The notes beneath the pieces were generated by a model, which had not been told where the DNA came from, did no database searches, and worked only from the letters and a program-made list of their open reading frames with translations. This document shows, in pieces, positions 1-8,350 of a stretch of 64,000 bases of DNA. Each line of letters begins with the position of its first letter. Position 1 is the first letter of the stretch. The stretch is taken from assembly GCA_965224085.1 (NCBI GenBank), contig CBDCYI010000004.1, positions 96,001 to 160,000 on the forward strand, given 5' to 3'. The position numbers and the translations under genes are program-made. Source of the DNA: Candidatus Marinacidobacterales bacterium. GTDB taxonomy: Bacteria; Acidobacteriota; Vicinamibacteria; Marinacidobacterales; SMYC01.

Positions 1-79
1 TTGAATCATTCGGGCCCGACATCCATAGGGAATTCCCCGCAAACTGTTGAAAAGAGGCCCGATCAGGACTTCGCACAAG

Positions 80-96
80 CTGGCACGCCCCTTGCT
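80..96 (+). promoter_or_regulatory. sigma54 (RpoN) -24/-12 promoter
   Basis: CTGGCACGCCCCTTGCT matches the YTGGCACG-N4-TTGCW consensus with exact spacing. Confidence 0.8.
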
Positions 97-106
97 TGGT
101 CCAAGG

Positions 107-226
107 GGTGAGAACGCATTTGGCGTCGCTCCCCAATCTCGACGCCAGCCCCGGGAGGTGCCCCCTGCACCGCCTCTCGGGGATAGAATCAGGGGGACAG
201 GCTTAAAAGCTTGTCCCCCTTTTTCG
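107..226 (+). ncRNA. candidate sigma54-dependent small RNA with three stem-loops
   Basis: Lies between the sigma54 promoter and a terminator. Stems 121-128/140-147, 149-160/171-182 and 191-203/208-220; the only non-Watson-Crick pairs are G-U on the + strand. The 5' end is inferred from promoter geometry. Confidence 0.6.
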
Positions 227-230
227 TTTT
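191..230 (+). terminator. intrinsic terminator
   Basis: AGGGGGACAGGCT-TAAA-AGCTTGTCCCCCT followed by TTTTCGTTTT. Confidence 0.8.
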
Positions 231-251
231 GGGCCAGCGTCGCGGATGGGT

Positions 252-524
252 TCACGGCTCGCTCCCAAAAACCTGACCTCGAAGAACGACGAGCTTCCGA
301 AACGCGCGAAGCCGGCCGTAGAGACGACACGTTTTCCACAGGCTCCAAAGCCGGTAGGTAATAATACCTACTCCCATTCCGCCCGCAATGCCGGTCAAGA
401 ATCGTTCGATGGCCAGATCCGGTGAGGCTCCGGCCTGCGCGACAAGCCAGTCGAGCACGAGGAGTGCTGCGAGCAAAGTGCCGACCCCAACGCTCAGTCG
501 CTGCTTGCGTTTCGAAGCCGCCAC
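252..524 (-). CDS. small hypothetical membrane protein
   Basis: 90-aa ORF with two hydrophobic segments; no family recognised. Confidence 0.35.
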   Translation of the reverse strand: MAASKRKQRLSVGVGTLLAALLVLDWLVAQAGASPDLAIERFLTGIAGGMGVGIITYRLWSLWKTCRLYGRLRAFRKLVVLRGQVFGSEP

Positions 525-531
525 TAACCGA

Positions 532-890
532 CCACGCCCATAGGGCGTGGGTTTAGGAAGGCCCCCCCGAGGGGGCCGATGACGTTGGGAAGGCCCCGTT
601 GGGGCCGTCTCTCGTTAACTCAGGTCGAGATCACCTTGGCGAGACTCAAGCTTTTCTTGCTCCCGGATGTACTTTCTTATTCGCTCCTCGTCAAGGCCAA
701 CCGTACTCACACAGTACCCCTTCGCCCAAAAATGCAAGCCCGTCATACGACGTTCTTTCAGCAATTCTCGGTGGATGCGTACCGCACTCTTCCCTTTCAG
801 AAAACCGATCGTGTGAGATACGCTGTACTTGGGAGGGATGCTCATACACAGGTGGATGTGGTCCGGTTGCGCGTTGCCTTCTATCAGTTC
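532..890 (-). mobile_element. tnpA: IS200/IS605-family TnpA remnant (5' truncated) with end hairpins
   Basis: PDHIHL (HUH motif), SIPPKYSVS..IGFLKGKS, FWAKGYCVSTVG..IRKYI; stop at 615. Downstream hairpins at 532-550, 560-577, 592-606. N-terminus absent. Confidence 0.85.
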
Positions 891-1019
891 TACTGGAATC
901 AAGCCGACTAGGTTGTACAGTCTCGTGGGTTTCGTCCAGTACCCAGACGGATTTGCTGATGCGGGCTCAGGATCGCTCGTCGTCGCTATTCGAGATATCA
1001 TGACAATTGAGGCGGTGAG

Positions 1020-1391
1020 ATGAGTACGACTCGTAGGGAAGAATCCACCGACGCGCTCGCGCGGATTCGCGACCTGCTAGAGCACGAGCGGGTTTCTGAA
1101 GCCAGAGGTGTGCTGCAAGAAGCGCTCGTCTCCCGACCGCACGATGAGGACCTCTTGCGTCTCCAGTCGCTCCTAGCACCACCGCACGTGCGCAAGAGCG
1201 GCACAACACTCGACACCGATCGAACCAAGGACTTCCAGTGGCTCTCCGATAACGCTTCCACGCATCGCGACCGTTGGGTCGCCATTCATGAGGGTCAGCT
1301 CGTCGCCGAGGCGACCTCGCTCGATGAGCTGCTGGAACGCGTGAGCGCTCTTGTGCTGACACATACTCCGCTTATTCATTTCATCGATTAG
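1020..1391 (+). CDS. DUF5678-like small protein
   Basis: C-terminal WL....YR/HR.RWVAIHEGQLVA.ATSLDELL pattern; directly precedes a retropepsin-like gene, the usual partner. Confidence 0.6.
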   Translation: MSTTRREESTDALARIRDLLEHERVSEARGVLQEALVSRPHDEDLLRLQSLLAPPHVRKSGTTLDTDRTKDFQWLSDNASTHRDRWVAIHEGQLVAEATSLDELLERVSALVLTHTPLIHFID

Positions 1392-1394
1392 TGG

Positions 1395-1780
1395 ATGCTG
1401 CGCGATCTCGAAGGGAACTCCTTCGCCACCGGCTGCGCCGTCTTCATGGACACAGATTTACCGGAGGCCTCGCCAAAGATCTATGTCCGCATCCAGCCTG
1501 GGAACATGCCGGCGCCCGTGCTAGCACAGCTAGACACGGGAGCTGCATGGTCGGTTCTCAACGTGGAGATCGCACGTCGCATTGGAGCACTCGACACGAT
1601 CGGTGAGCCGTTCACGGCTATCCACACGAATGGGCAGCTTTCGCGGAAAGCTAGTAAGAGCTTCGGTGTCCCTCGCGGCGGATGCCGGAGAATCGCTCAA
1701 ACTCGATGCCACGTTTCTTCGTCTCATCCGACTGGGTACATGGCACATTCCTTGGATATTCCGGCTTACTCGAGCGGATC
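1395..1780 (+). pseudogene. retropepsin-like (clan AA) aspartyl protease, frameshifted and truncated
   Basis: AQLDTGAAWSVL catalytic motif; homology continues in two other frames (STRMGSFRGKL; TFLGYSGLLERI). Confidence 0.65.
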
Positions 1781-2127
1781 CCCCAGTCGGCGATGTTCTC
1801 GAATAGCGGCTCGTCGGTGGAGGTAGCGATGTCCCCTGTCGACTTCACGAGCGTCCAGCCGTCCGGTGCTCCAGCCGTGTCATCGATGAAGCACGAGTTT
1901 AGGATCTCAGGAGTGATGGCGTCCTCCGCCAGCAGCCCGCGATGGTTGGTCTTGGCCACACCGTCGAGCACTTTGGCGAGTCGTACGTAGCCCTGGCGCT
2001 CGGACGAGTCGACGATGTAGCCCACGTCCGCCCGTATCTCTGCGCGCTTGACTCCTGCGCCTAGGGATGCGATGCCGTTGCGTCGCTGCGCGATGGAGGT
2101 GAGGTCCGGGTTGTCCCACGCCATCAC
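1780..2127 (-). CDS. hypothetical protein fragment
   Basis: Natural-looking ORF composition; collides head-on with the protease remnant; no family recognised. Confidence 0.3.
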
Positions 2128-2500
2128 ATGAGCTCTAACGACGTAGAAGTAAGAGTACGACGTGATGGCTATCGCCGGCGCACGTAGACCGGCAACTCAC
2201 GTTCAAATGCCTCTGGCGCCGTAGCCAACACCGACGGCACAGAAAGGATAGATCCGGGCACCCGTACTCAGCGCTCCACTTTTGCAGTTCATCACCCAAA
2301 CGGAGATCCGCATGTAGTGACGACAAAGACTTGTGCTTCATTCACAACCGCGAAGCCATAAGGAGCTCTGCTCAAAGCTGGCCGATCGAGTCAGGCGACT
2401 AGAGCGGGAGGTCGATCGTCTGACCCTATGCAGCCGGCATCGTGACTTTGCCTTCGCGCTGCAAGGCGAGGGGCCGTCTTCTGCACCGGGGAAACTGAAC

Positions 2501-2576
2501 TGGTGGCGAAGGCAGGATTCGAACCTGCGACCTCCAGGTTATGAGCCTGGCGAGCTGACCGCTGCTCCACTCCGCT
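2501..2576 (-). tRNA. tRNA-Met(CAT), initiator-like
   Basis: Reverse complement AGCGGAGTGGAGCAGCGGTCAGCTCGCCAGGCTCATAACCTGGAGGTCGCAGGTTCGAATCCTGCCTTCGCCACCA; cloverleaf, A1:C72 mismatch, encoded CCA. Confidence 0.93.
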
Positions 2577-2722
2577 CCGAGCCGTGTCCAATCCACGCCG
2601 CCGGCGGGAAACTGTCGCAAAACTGTCGCGATCCTCCAGATAACTCCAGGGGCTCAGGGAGCAAAAAGCCACATTTCGGGCGCCATTTCCATCCCTGAGT
2701 CTCCCTGAGCTATCTGGAGCCT

Positions 2723-3020
2723 CACCGAGCCAAGATGCTCGACTTTGGGCTCGCAAAACCAACGGGTGCGTTTGCCGGAGGCGACGCCGATAGTGCCCTT
2801 CCTACGGTGGCGAAGACAGCCGAGGGAGTGATCGTCGGGACGATGAACTACATGTCCCCCGAGCAGGTAGAGGGACAGGCAATCGATCACCGTTCCGACA
2901 TCTTTTCCGTCGGGATCATTTTTTACGAGATGGCGACAGGCAGACGCCCGTTTCAAGGCGAAACGCCGACTGCCACTCCCTTGTCGATCCTCAAAGACAC
3001 CCCTGCTTCCGTGACCGATT
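2723..3020 (+). pseudogene. Hanks-type Ser/Thr kinase fragment
   Basis: [37 protein letters not shown]; N-lobe missing. Confidence 0.85.
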
Positions 3021-3480
3021 GCCAGTCCTTCACTGCCGCCGCTTCTCGCGAGAATCCACTAGGAACCGTCGCTGTATCCGAAGTAGAACAGGTTGCGGGA
3101 GGGGTCGATGGCAAATCGGCCAGCAAGTCGTCAAGGTCACCAAAGGCTCGGGTGACACCTAGTTTCATCGCTCGTTCACCACTACGGCGCTAGACCGGCG
3201 CATCCTCATCTGGGCAAAGTCGGCTACCGCTGGAGCACAGCGCGAGTGGGCGTACCAGCGCGACGATGGCGATTGGTGGGACGACAGCGGTGAGTCCTGG
3301 GCAGCATCGATAGCGTGGAACGCGCTCGCGCTCACGAACGCGGAGTGGACGCGTACACACTCGAAGCTCATCACGGGCCAAGGCGCAGGTACTGGCGTCC
3401 TCCGCATCGGCAAGAGCGGCGGCAGCGAGTCCTAAACCGTTGATTCTAGGGCTAACACAGGCTGAGACCGATTCATGATT

Positions 3481-3536: not shown

Positions 3537-6149
3537 TTAGGCTGGCGTCGCGACGGGCTCGCTCGTGAACGTGAACGCACCGTCCTGGACGCCGATCCGC
3601 AGAGTTTTACCCTCCCGAATTTCTCCCGTCAGAAGACGCCGCGCGATTTCCGTTTCGAGCGACTTCTGTATCGTCCGCTTGATGGGCCGCGCCCCGTAGA
3701 CCGGGTCGTAGCCCGCCTCGGCGAGAAGGCGCTTCGCCCCATCCGTGAGCGCGAGCTCGATCCGTTTGTGGGCGAGCCGCCGCGCGAGCCTCTGAAGTTG
3801 GATATCGACGATGGCGACGAGCTGCTCTTTGTCGAGAGCGTGGAAGACGACGACCTCATCAACGCGATTCAAGAACTCGGGCCGGAAGTGTTGCTTCATC
3901 TGGCCGAGCACCTCGCCTTTCATTTGCAGGTAGTGCTCACTGTCCGACGTGCCCTCGAAAGCGAGGATCTCCGAGCTTCCAATATTCGATGTCATGATGA
4001 GCATCGTATTGCGGAAGTCGACCGTACGCCCCTGAGAATCGGTGAGACGGCCTTCGTCGAGAATCTGCAGGAGCAGATTGAAGACGTCCGCATGGGCCTT
4101 TTCGACCTCGTCGAACAGGACGACCGAGAACGGCTTCCGCCGTACGGCCTCCGTCAGCTGACCACCCTCCTCGTAGCCGACATAGCCGGGAGGCGCCCCA
4201 ACGAGACGGGCCACGGCATGTTTCTCCATGTACTCGCTCATATCGATACGTATGAGCGCCTTCTCGTCGTTAAACAGATAAGCCGCCAGTGTCCGGGCGA
4301 GCTCCGTCTTACCGACACCCGTGGGCCCGAGAAAGATGAAGCTTCCGATGGGCCGATCCGGATCTTGGATGCCTGCACGGGCGCGCACGACCGCGTCCGC
4401 GACCGCGTCAACGGCCTCGTCTTGACCGATGACGCGCTCGTGGAGATGGGCGCCGAGTTGAAGCAGCTTGTCGACTTCGCCCTCGAGGAGCTTCGCCACC
4501 GGAATACCTGTCCAGCGAGCGACGACTTCGGCGATATCCTCATCGCCGACCTCCTCTTTGAGCAAAACGCTCTTTCTGTCGGCGAGCGCTGCTTCGGCTT
4601 TCTCGAGCGCGGCGCCGAGCTCGTTCAAGCGCCCGTAGCGAAGCTCCGCGACTTTGTTGAGATCGTACGCTCTTTCCGCTTTTTCGATTTCCTGCTTCGT
4701 CTGCTCGATCGCCTCGCGACGTTGCCGCACAGAGCCGAGAAGGTCTTTTTCTTCCTGCCACTGAGCCCGGAGGCCATCCGCGAGCGCTTTTCCGTCCTTC
4801 AGCTCTTTTTCCAGCTGCCTCAAACGACCCTTCGAAGCTTTGTCCTTTTCCTTCTTGAGCGCCTGGCGCTCAATCTCCAGCTGCATGACACGGCGATCCA
4901 CCTCGTCGAGCTCCGTCGGCACGCTGTCGATCTCGGTTCGTAGACGCGCGGCAGCTTCGTCGACGAGGTCGATGGCCTTGTCCGGCAAGAACCGGTCGGA
5001 GATGTAGCGATGTGACAAAAGAGCCGCCGCGACGAGCGCAGTATCTTTGATACGGACGCCGTGGTGCACTTCGTACCGCTCGTTGAGCCCCCGCAAGATC
5101 GAAATGGTGTCCTCGGTGCTCGGCTCGTCGACGAGCACGGTCTGAAAACGCCTTTCGAGCGCGGCGTCTTTTTCGATGTGCTTGCGATATTCGTCGAGCG
5201 TCGTGGCGCCGATACAGTGGAGCTCGCCGCGCGCGAGCATCGGCTTGAGCAGATTGCCGGCATCCATCGGTGCACCTTCGGCCTTACCCGCGCCGACGAC
5301 GTTGTGGAGCTCGTCGATGAACAAGATGACCCGCCCGTCGGATTCTTGGACCGCTTTGAGGACGGCTTTGAGCCGCTCTTCAAACTCACCGCGATATTTC
5401 GCGCCCGCTATGAGAGCGCCCATATCGAGCGAAACGACCTGCTTGTCTTTCAGTCCTTCGGGAACGTCGCCGCGCACGATGCGCTGGGCGAGCCCTTCCG
5501 CGATCGCCGTCTTGCCAACGCCAGGCTCTCCGATGAGTACCGGGTTGTTCTTCGTGCGGCGCGACAGAATCTGAATCACGCGACGAATCTCGTCGTCACG
5601 GCCGATCACAGGATCGAGCTTGCCGGATGACGCTTGCTGGGTGAGGTCGCGCCCATATTGCTCGAGAGCTTCATAGGTGCTCTCGGGGTTCTGAGAGGTC
5701 ACGCGTTGGGTGCCGCGCACCTCCTTCAAAGCCGAGAGCAACGCCTCCCGGCTGACGCCCCGCTCAGACAGAAGCTTGCCGGACGGGCCGTCATCCGATG
5801 CCAAGCCGAGCAAGAGATGCTCGACGCTCACATAATCGTCCTTGAGGGTTGACGCTTCCTGCTGCGCCTGATCGAGCACGCCTCTCAAGCGCGCTCCGAT
5901 ATAGAGCTGTCCGGCGCCCGGGCCTTTTACGGAGGGAACGGCTTCGAGCTCGTTCTCAACGGCGGCTCTGAGCGACGCGAGGTTCGGCTCGAGACGAGAC
6001 AAAATCGTTTCGGTTAGGCCACCTTCCTGCTCCAGCAGAGCAAGAAGGAGATGCTCGGACTCGATCTGCTGGTGGCCCTGCCTAGTCGCGAGTGCCTGCG
6101 CCTCCCCCACGGCTTCCTGGGATTTTTCCGTTAACTTGTTGAAATCCAT
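3537..6149 (-). CDS. clpB: ATP-dependent chaperone ClpB
   Basis: 870 aa; two AAA modules ([16 protein letters not shown]), [11 protein letters not shown], long coiled-coil M domain, GAPPGYVGY. Confidence 0.98.
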
Positions 6150-6240
6150 AGCCTACATCCTCCTGACATCGAGGTATGCGTAAGTATAACATATTAGTTC
6201 TAATATATCAAATAATATAATGCCATGGCACTCATTTTAA

Positions 6241-6269
6241 TTGACGAACCCGGGGCTATCCGCTATACT
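6241..6269 (+). promoter_or_regulatory. sigma70-type promoter for dnaK
   Basis: TTGACG-N17-TATACT, with an AT-rich tract upstream. Confidence 0.75.
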
Positions 6270-6314
6270 AGTTATCGTAACGTGGTCCAAAACCATTACA
6301 AGCGACTGCGCTGA

Positions 6315-7258
<944 letters not shown>

Positions 7259-8350
7259 GCTGCCTTGGTGCACAACTCCGATAGAGGCCGAGAGCTCGCT
7301 TGGCCCCGACTCCCATCATCCGATCATCTCGCTATCAGGCATCCCGAGCGCCGTCATGGTGTTGAGAATCTTGCACCCGATCCTTGCCTCGACTCTCTGT
7401 GCCGCCAACCCTCTCGCTCGCATCGCTGAGCCCACGATAGCCTTGTAGCGATGGAACGTTGTCTCGACTTTGCTCCGTTTGCTGTAGCCCGATTCTGTGT
7501 GCCACTTTCGTTTGCCGAGCCGAGCTTGTGCTGCAAATGTTGCGATTGCGCTGTCGGCTGCTCGCCGGCCCCGATGCGAGCTGGGCGCCCTTGCGCGGCG
7601 GTATCAGCACCCTCGGTGAGCGATGAGCGCTGTGATTCTCGATTGCCTCATAGACGCCGCTGGCGTCGTATGCGGTGTCAGCTCTGGCCGATGAGATGGG
7701 ACTGTCGATCTGTCTGACAAGCGATGCAACCCGCGATGAATCGCGGGCTCTTTTGCTCGTCAGCTCGCAGGCGACGACTTCGCCAGTCTGCTCGTCGACA
7801 CACAGATGGAGCTTGCGATAGTCCCTGCTATTTGGTGCTCTGCGCAGCTGGCCGGCGTGGACAGCGAGACCGCTGCTGTCGATCAAGATGTGCAACGGCG
7901 TCTTCTGCTTGTCTTGGTAGAAGGGGACCTTACCCAGCTTCGCCTTGCGCCTCGAGATCGTGGTGTGATCGGGCACATCATTGTCTAGCTTCATCAGAGC
8001 GAACAACGATCGCAGCAATCCCTCGCTCTGTCTAGATGACAGATGAAACACCATGCCCAGGGTGACAGCCGTCTCGATGGCGTGGTTCGACTACTTGCGT
8101 TGACGGCCCGGTTTCCTCCTCCTCGGCCGGGGCGCGTCCCAGTTCACAAGCTTGCCGGCGGTGAGCGAGATCCAGACGGTCAGGCTCCCACGGTTGCGTA
8201 GACCCGCCTCATATTCACGCCAATTCCTCACGCGATAGGCCTTCTTCACATACTTCCGCTGAGTGCGTTTGAAAATGCTCATGGGGAACCTCGAATCCGT
8301 GAGTAAAGGACAATTGTGGACCGAGATCGCGAGTTGTGCACCAAGGCAGC
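7259..8350 (-). mobile_element. IS5-family (IS903-like) insertion sequence
   Basis: Perfect 20-bp inverted repeats GCTGCCTTGGTGCACAACTC (7259-7278 / 8331-8350); true ends may be up to 3 bp further in; no target duplication seen. Confidence 0.9.
7335..8282 (-). pseudogene. IS5-family DDE transposase, disrupted
   Basis: YRVRNWREYEAGLRNRGSLTVW, PDHTTISRR, LIDSSG, RKLHLCVD; in-frame TAG at 8091-8093 and a frameshift near 7540. Confidence 0.88.

Follow-up and report, generated by a model that had tools for sequence, protein, structure and literature searches.

A putative sigma-54-dependent small RNA gene linked to an NtrC-type activator in uncultured Acidobacteriota

In the present study, we analyzed an element near the left end of a 64,000-nucleotide stretch of DNA (hereafter the window; contig CBDCYI010000004.1, positions 96,001 to 160,000 of the forward strand) from a Candidatus Marinacidobacterales bacterium. 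An initial annotation, made from the sequence, had described positions 80 to 230 of the window as a candidate small RNA (sRNA) gene with a sigma-54 promoter. Our results indicated that the element is best explained as a gene for a trans-acting, base-pairing sRNA controlled by sigma-54 and an activator protein, and we assigned this reading as a whole a probability of about 0.6. We are confident that the element encodes a real, separately transcribed non-coding RNA (ncRNA), consider its dependence on sigma-54 and the neighboring activator likely, and regard action by base pairing in trans as an even call. The evidence comprised the observed anatomy of the gene, its conservation, the promoter with its upstream boxes, the linkage to particular genes, and a single RNA-library contig whose ends are as predicted.

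Promoter and Upstream Boxes

The consensus sigma-54 promoter proposed in the initial annotation was confirmed and agrees with the extended -24/-12 consensus at every position (Table 1). The pattern TGGCAC-N5-TTGCW was found 16 times on the two strands of the 6.87-Mb genome (60% G+C), against 6.4 occurrences expected from base composition, and the extended form YTGGCACG-N4-TTGCW was found four times, against about one expected. Given the genome-wide expectation of 6.4, about 0.06 chance promoter matches would fall in a 64-kb window. The promoter was conserved as well. The form TGG(C/T)(A/G)(C/T)-N5-TTGC was kept at all 16 loci of the bacterial family for which flanking DNA was fetched, and the promoter was also kept in nine of nine metagenome matches, which were obtained with a search pattern that left promoter and stems free (one match being the contig of family member G004 itself). 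The distance from TTGC to the conserved block that follows was 12–17 nt in 15 of the 16 loci and 21 nt in the remaining one, G012. No sigma-70-like promoter was found in window positions 1–1200. The genome carries one copy of rpoN, and hfq is present.

A sigma-54 promoter cannot fire without an enhancer-binding protein. Upstream of the promoter, two A/T-rich dyad boxes were conserved at all 16 family loci amid intergenic DNA that was otherwise unalignable. In the window's genome (G000), the boxes were spaced 33 nt from start to start, corresponding to about three helical turns, with a gap-free alignment in this region, and the proximal box lay about 75 nt before the -24 element. These boxes are candidate sites, presumed to be bound by the activator, and boxes and promoter together have the classical layout of an enhancer-dependent promoter. 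Between the boxes and the promoter lies a partly conserved A/T-rich block, which may serve as a DNA-bending (IHF-type) site. A crude pattern search of the genome for further boxes returned 69 single sites and no tandem pair, the pattern being so strict that even the distal box of this locus did not satisfy it.

Transcript Evidence

Six RNA sequencing runs shared sequence words with the stretch. Four of them were examined as contigs, and the core of the RNA was present in three of the four. The most informative contig, X15, was 157 nt long and matched the window at 110–225 only. On its 3' side, six more letters past 225 were followed by an A-run, and on its 5' side, 18 non-matching letters stood directly before 110, which we take to be the end of a template-switching adaptor. 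The 5' end of the match fell where a sigma-54 start is expected, 12–15 nt downstream from the GC in the -12 element. A full-length cDNA made from a discrete transcript of about 120 nt would show these features. Another contig, X17, represented a more diverged relative and was aligned over 120–183, and run X16 yielded no contig on the stretch. Overall, the RNA-library contigs provided moderate support for a discrete transcript. The three runs with a matching contig were labeled aquatic, estuary, and marine sediment.

Structure of the RNA

The fold predicted for positions 105–230 had an energy of -65.5 kcal/mol (z = -5.2), and none of 200 shuffled sequences folded as well. The reverse strand of the same region folded less stably, at -60.1 kcal/mol (z = -4.1). 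The three consecutive stems of 8, 12, and 13 bp described in the initial annotation were recovered in the fold of the window, the loops of hairpins 1 and 2 were C-rich as claimed, and the three non-Watson-Crick pairs were all G-U on the plus strand. An invariant U-G pair would become a C-A mismatch on the other strand.

Across the 18 family sequences, the stem of hairpin 1 was invariant but for one U-A to U-G change, and its loop varied in three of them, with one C/U transition each. All four loop substitutions observed in the alignment were C/U transitions, and such transitions would be tolerated opposite G in a partner. Four of the five variable stem pairs switched only between Watson-Crick and G-U pairing. 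The few stem changes are thus compatible with a structure formed by RNA from the plus strand, as far as the alignment indicates.

The third hairpin behaved differently. A separate terminator hairpin followed hairpin 2 in eight of the 18 family sequences, and G012 carried an unrelated hairpin at this place; in the other nine, a T-run followed directly after hairpin 2, which itself serves as the terminator. The third hairpin was kept in the window's genus and in G009, G010, and G011, with small changes that preserve the stem. Judged from this pattern, it appears to be an ordinary terminator, variable and absent in 9 of the 18. The three-stem description therefore held for the window and failed as a general layout. 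The RNA would be about 120 nt long in the window's genome and about 85 nt long in relatives that have no third hairpin.

The absence of a credible open reading frame (ORF) over the RNA, also claimed initially, was confirmed: only frames of 35–36 codons without a ribosome site were found. These frames, a 36-codon TTG frame (96–206) and a 35-codon frame on the minus strand, are what a micro-protein gene could build on. The start of such a gene would lie inside the promoter. Moreover, length differences of 1–3 nt in the 5' part and an extra C inserted into loop 2 of G012 disrupted a shared frame; beyond hairpin 2, no conservation between genera was seen, and the substitutions showed no third-position pattern. 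We therefore consider a micro-protein gene close to negligible as an explanation.

Distribution and Conservation

Only one full-length copy of the element was present in the genome; 12 further blastn matches were fragments of 15–26 nt with E values of at least 1. With one copy in this genome and one locus per relative, a dispersed repeat of the REP type was ruled out, in agreement with the initial annotation. By blastn, the element was found in 17 of the 18 other family genomes, and a covariance model (R1) detected one locus in 18 of the 19 family genomes, including that of the window. The sole miss in the family was G007, an 84%-complete assembly of 2.8 Mb. In G011, two short contigs carried the element at their ends, which most probably reflects an assembly break within a single locus. 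All carriers are uncultured Acidobacteriota of the class Vicinamibacteria.

The core of the RNA (window 110–185) was 92–96% identical between genera, whereas the flanking DNA was unalignable and the neighboring proteins were less conserved, with 56–88% identity for the J-domain protein and 77–95% for the activator. When R1 was run against 55 genomes of the order and 151 of the class, the matches were weak and, on inspection, mostly coding or promoter-less; a match in G027, an unpublished genome, was set aside. The only real homologue outside the family from these searches was found in G031, a member of a sister family. Its RNA has a weaker -24/-12 element and a hairpin 1 that is shortened and lacks the motif of loop 1, shares the outer 10 bp of hairpin 2 and the C-run of its loop, and has otherwise diverged. 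Both upstream boxes are present in G031 at a spacing of about 44 nt (by eye), one helical turn wider. In the syntenic gap of G029, no counterpart of the RNA was visible. A pattern scan of the genome collection returned family members plus chance matches in Streptomyces and others.

The initial annotation had not recognized the family of the RNA, and our Rfam search led to the same result. Running cmscan over window positions 1–3000 with E values up to 10, we obtained only sub-threshold chance matches over 69–297, with scores far from the gathering thresholds (P11, 20.5 vs 70 bits; STnc400, 21.4 vs 80 bits; BjrC80, 19.3 vs 80 bits). A known Rfam family, including Pxr, Qrr, Acido-1, Acido-Lenti-1, 6S, and SRP, was thus ruled out, as no covariance model matched.

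Gene Neighborhood and Activator

An NtrC-like gene had been expected just upstream of the window. Such a gene was present, together with a hybrid histidine kinase gene, at a distance of about 1.7 kb and thus not directly adjacent to the RNA, the J-domain gene lying between (Table 1). The order of kinase, activator, J-domain gene, and RNA was found at 15 of 16 loci, the locus of the window among them. Since about 21 full-length activators are encoded in the 6.9-Mb genome, the probability of meeting one within a few kilobases by chance is about 2%. The activator scored below all NCBIfam equivalog cut-offs (LuxO, 355 vs 800 bits), and its closest solved relatives were NtrC1, ZraR, LuxO (5ep0, E 6e-81), and NtrC. 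On this comparison it appears to be a generic member of the NtrC family.

Three further genomes bear on the link between activator and RNA. In G004, which belongs to the window's genus, a local deletion beside the RNA (L035, G004:C52:3400-19500) has removed the kinase and activator genes together with part of the J-domain gene, and the best activator match anywhere in this genome is 49% identical, vs 77–95% for orthologues. The RNA of G004 carries the family's only stem-breaking substitution, a unique loop-1 change, and the unique -24 variant TGGCGC. This pattern fits a decay of the RNA after loss of the activator, in a single case. G007, which has no RNA, likewise has no orthologous activator (best match 48%). 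In G031, an activator of 72% identity was found with a kinase (L142, G031:C29), on a contig other than that of the diverged RNA.

Downstream of the RNA, the gene content was more variable. At 7 of 16 loci, the next gene was a convergent clpB, no more than about 300 nt from where the conserved core starts. At 3 of 16 loci (G005, G017, and G018, all of one genus), a co-oriented dnaK followed about 290–340 nt after the core start, and the remaining loci had variable DNA after the RNA. The constant theme, as a hint, is a proteostasis neighborhood with a Lon-N domain, a J-domain, ClpB, and DnaK.

The three loci with dnaK on the same strand could suggest a role in cis, in which the element would be a leader or attenuator of dnaK, with transcription starting at the sigma-54 promoter and reading through conditionally. 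Against this, the next gene is the opposite-strand clpB at seven loci, and elsewhere variable DNA follows, in the window with an opposite-strand IS200 tnpA. A T-run stands after the last hairpin at all loci, and dnaK has its own sigma-70-like sequence before its start (by eye). Such sequences were seen by eye before the starts of clpB and the J-domain gene as well, and no second sigma-54 promoter was seen in the intergenic region beside the RNA or in the stretches before the neighboring gene starts. A leader of dnaK is consequently a very improbable reading.

The position of clpB raises another explanation, in which the element would act at the DNA level or as a shared 3'-end element, either as a bidirectional terminator or as an antisense to the convergent clpB 3' end. 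In several relatives, the clpB stop codon indeed lies about 10–40 nt from the end of the RNA. The minus strand, in contrast, has no U-run after hairpin 2, its G-U pairs turn into C-A mismatches, and its fold is weaker. A terminator would need no conserved promoter and activator boxes, and the element is intact in the window although clpB is 3.3 kb away, where inserted DNA has pushed it. We judged this explanation remoter still than the leader.

The reading as an independently transcribed, non-coding sRNA gene of the sigma-54 type, which the initial annotation had put forward, was thus supported by anatomy, conservation, and promoter. In the proposed mechanism, transcription would start from the sigma-54 promoter, and the NtrC-type response regulator about 1.7 kb upstream, fed by the hybrid histidine kinase, would be the most likely activator, binding the two dyad boxes about 100–140 bp upstream of the start. 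The RNA would run on the plus strand from about 107/110 to about 230 and end at the intrinsic terminator. Its invariant single-stranded parts, namely the 5' end, the C-rich loop 1, and the C-rich loop 2, would be the pairing segments, with G-rich stretches of mRNA, such as Shine-Dalgarno regions, as partners. In this way, the signal of the kinase would be passed on to translation or mRNA stability. The gene neighborhood hints that the signal concerns protein-folding stress. We infer the identity of the activator, the stress signal, and the base-pairing mode alike.

Target Prediction and Evidence Against the Proposed Mechanism

Several results weigh against this reading or parts of it. With regard to transcription, the evidence from RNA is thin: the 249-nt contig X18 runs upstream through a sigma-54 promoter and may represent DNA or read-through, and contigs alone cannot prove transcript ends. 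The activator is linked to the RNA by position only, with the J-domain gene intervening. All genomes are metagenome-assembled and no culture exists. With regard to structure, the third hairpin is a weak point, being present in only about half of the genomes. The initial annotation had called for homologues that keep the promoter and covary; the promoter was kept, but no covariation was seen. None of 20 pairs (own structure) or 21 pairs (RNAalifold) changed on both sides. In this alignment, 99.7% of the cells were paired and nearly all pairs never varied, leaving the test without power; with stems this invariant, covariation neither supports nor refutes the fold. Even in the metagenome scan, in which the stems were left free, all nine matches had identical stems. 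An sRNA acting purely by base pairing would not usually have stems so invariant, a pattern compatible with recognition by a protein.

The target searches weigh in the same direction. The initial annotation had proposed that the C-rich loops pair with G-rich ribosome-binding sites. We calculated duplex energies of the three single-stranded segments against about 5,900 inferred translation-start regions, and their distribution was the same as that of reversed controls, with no conserved site; the proposal was thus not borne out. The gene starts came from a homemade caller, so weak target signals could be missed. The start regions of the J-domain gene, clpB, dnaK, the kinase, and the activator revealed no conserved pairing. 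The 11-mer complementary to loop 1 occurred at 64 sites outside the RNA gene in the 19 genomes, compared with about 60 expected from composition (the backwards 11-mer is a poor control, as it contains rare TA steps). All five cross-genus clusters of these sites lay in long ORFs, on either strand.

One of these clusters corresponded to the coding sequence of the (D/E/Q)-I-G-E Walker-B motif of sigma-54 activator genes. Among the 21 activator genes examined in G000, 18 were found with the motif, and they were not generally complementary to loop 1, mostly using other codons. Consequently, we judged the complementarity between Walker-B sequences and loop 1 a coincidence and rejected it as a target signal.

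An alternative explanation is that the RNA acts mainly via a protein, by sequestering it, as a scaffold, or as a structured ligand, for example of a regulator or of the neighboring protein with PATAN, J-domain, and TPR. The sequence invariance of both stems across genera and in nine of nine metagenome variants is consistent with such a role, as are the target signals that did not exceed controls and the constant linkage of the RNA to J-domain and chaperone genes. None of our tests pointed to a partner, however, and no repeated protein-binding motif was noticed in the sequence, although none was looked for. Furthermore, a U-tailed terminator and an hfq gene in the genome are in keeping with a classical base-pairing sRNA, and the changes in the loops are all C/U transitions of the kind tolerated opposite G. 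We therefore regard action via a protein as unlikely. In a more specific version, which appears quite improbable, a phosphorelay that senses proteostasis would have the RNA as its only direct output, and the RNA, its stems being frozen in sequence, would serve as a structured ligand instead of an antisense regulator. Recognition by the co-conserved PATAN/J-domain/TPR protein, for example, could tie an RNA signal to the DnaK/ClpB chaperones. If true, a heat-shock-type response in Acidobacteriota would have an RNA arm under sigma-54 control.

A genome-wide scan by seed and duplex was noisy, and its top matches lay inside genes. For the preferred reading as a base-pairing sRNA, the scan of translation-start regions provided one lead. 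Of its best loop-1 matches, one fell within a short upstream ORF belonging to a transporter operon and one in the start region of a paralogous gene for a PATAN/J-domain/TPR protein (G000:C5:1535845-1537341, minus strand). The paralogous gene has its own sigma-54 promoter, conserved in six of six genomes. In four of the six, its ribosome-binding region was complementary to loop 1 over 7–8 nt, and the complementarity was weakened in G003. The 8-mer of this pairing occurred in only 3–5 of the approximately 5,900 start regions. On these matches, the paralogous gene may be considered a candidate target. Its product scored above the NCBIfam cut-off for an MshE-related motif that binds c-di-GMP (45.1 vs 38 bits).

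Comparison with Known Systems

The Qrr sRNAs of Vibrio are the output of LuxO, an NtrC-type regulator fed by a phosphorelay; their promoter is of the sigma-54 type with activator sites upstream, their gene lies near that of the activator, and they end in a U-tailed terminator. The present system resembles Qrr/LuxO in having a presumably dedicated sRNA, an NtrC-type activator encoded close to the RNA gene, a sigma-54 promoter with candidate upstream sites, a U-tailed terminator, and hfq in the genome. It differs in that no Rfam match was obtained (E up to 10), that one copy is present compared with one to five for Qrr, and that it belongs to another phylum. In addition, the loops are C-rich without the Qrr seed, and a J-domain gene stands between activator and RNA.

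The initial annotation had also likened the RNA to Pxr of Myxococcus xanthus. As described in two reports, pxr lies downstream of nla19, the gene for a sigma-54-dependent response regulator, has a predicted sigma-54 promoter, and forms three stem-loops (PMC5568312, PMC5684412), of which the first two are conserved and the third is variable (PMC5568312). The third hairpin is the variable one in our family too. The likeness stood for the design and failed for the family, with no Rfam match, another phylum, and other neighboring genes. Whereas pxr follows directly after nla19, the RNA here lies 1.7 kb away across another gene. Since the targets of Pxr are also unknown, no mechanism can be borrowed from it.

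In Desulfovibrio vulgaris, the sigma-54 regulome includes four ncRNAs, two of them downstream of the two-component activator genes DVU0653 and DVU0679 (Kazakov et al. 2015; PMC4641369). These represent the same kind of module of activator plus RNA. They come from another phylum and were likened by design, with no homology expected, and those RNAs likewise have no known targets. In the HsfB/HsfA phosphorelay of M. xanthus, a hybrid histidine kinase phosphorylates an NtrC-like activator, which directly switches on the heat-shock gene lonD (PMC9109919). Here, too, a receiver-containing kinase and an NtrC-like activator are found among genes for a Lon-N domain, a J-domain, clpB, and dnaK. In contrast to HsfB/HsfA, to which it was likened by gene content, the only sigma-54 promoter in the neighborhood sequences read drives the RNA and not a chaperone gene. 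On the best reading, the RNA would be analogous to Qrr, Pxr, and the ncRNAs of Desulfovibrio linked to enhancer-binding proteins, and not a member of those families; it constitutes a new RNA family of an already known kind of regulator.

In the open-access collection searched, we found no papers linking Acidobacteria, small RNAs, and sigma-54, or naming the order. Acidobacteriota are abundant in soils and sediments, and to our knowledge almost nothing is known of their RNA regulators. The present element provides a complete cassette of kinase, activator, boxes, sigma-54 promoter, RNA, and terminator, which can be read from the sequence alone throughout the family. It offers a test case for heterologous reconstitution, and its transcript could serve as a marker in metatranscriptomes of these bacteria. 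Two features could lead beyond the ordinary, namely the frozen stems and the neighborhood of chaperone genes.

Feature Coordinates and Adjacent Sequences

The coordinates of the features are collected in Table 1.

Table 1. Features of the RNA gene and its surroundings. Coordinates are window positions unless a locus is named; L031 coordinates convert as window position = L031 position minus 10000.
Feature	Coordinates	Strand	Basis or remark
Distal dyad box, wholly upstream of the window (candidate)	L031 9959-9975		conserved in the family alignment
Proximal dyad box, right half inside the window (candidate)	1-8	+	whole box L031 9992-10008
Semi-conserved A/T-rich block between boxes and promoter	38-55	+	partly conserved columns, 16 upstream regions aligned
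Sigma-54 (-24/-12) promoter, C TGGCAC GCCCC TTGC T	80-96	+	full match, extended consensus
Putative start of transcription (107-110) with the conserved, unpaired 5' segment GAGAACGCAUU	107-120	+	start of the conserved block; X15 contig match from 110
Hairpin 1: 8-bp stem 121-128/140-147 plus U-G closing pair, 11-nt loop CUCCCCAAUCU	121-147	+	fold and alignment
Hairpin 2: 12-bp stem 149-160/171-182, 10-nt C-rich loop CCCCCUGCAC	149-182	+	fold and alignment
Predicted intrinsic terminator: 13-bp stem 191-220, then T-run 221-230 TTTTTCGTTTT	191-230	+	fold
IS200-type Y1 transposase gene tnpA	615-1001	-	
clpB	3537-6149	-	3.3 kb from the RNA in the window, convergent; in relatives often 100-300 nt away from where the RNA ends
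Lon substrate-binding (Lon-N) domain protein	L031 4227-5027		profile domains
Hybrid histidine kinase: receiver, HisKA, HATPase	L031 5393-6991		
NtrC-type activator: receiver, Sigma54_activat, HTH_8	L031 6960-8393		
DUF4388/PATAN + J-domain + TPR protein	L031 8426-9904	opposite strand	
Diverged RNA locus of G031	L086 7997-8260 (G031:C43)	-	

In the window's genome alone, the gap between the RNA and clpB contained, besides the IS200-type tnpA (615–1001, minus strand), two small ORFs without a Pfam match, a tRNA (65.5 bits), and a Ser/Thr kinase fragment; the features recorded after tnpA lie at 1020–1826 (plus strand), 2504–2576 (minus strand), and 2735–3193 (plus strand). The dnaK divergent from clpB was broken, the frame being lost after about 66 codons (window 6339–7276, plus strand; 7335–8054, minus strand), and could be a pseudogene or an assembly error. 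Two further Hsp70 pieces (G000:C4:102526-102978 and 102980-103276) and then a DDE transposase gene followed the broken dnaK, and at least two full-length Hsp70 genes were found elsewhere in the genome. The divergent intergenic region between clpB and dnaK (6150–6338) was A/T-rich, contained a 10-bp palindrome, and had no visible -24/-12 element; it may be a candidate heat-shock operator.

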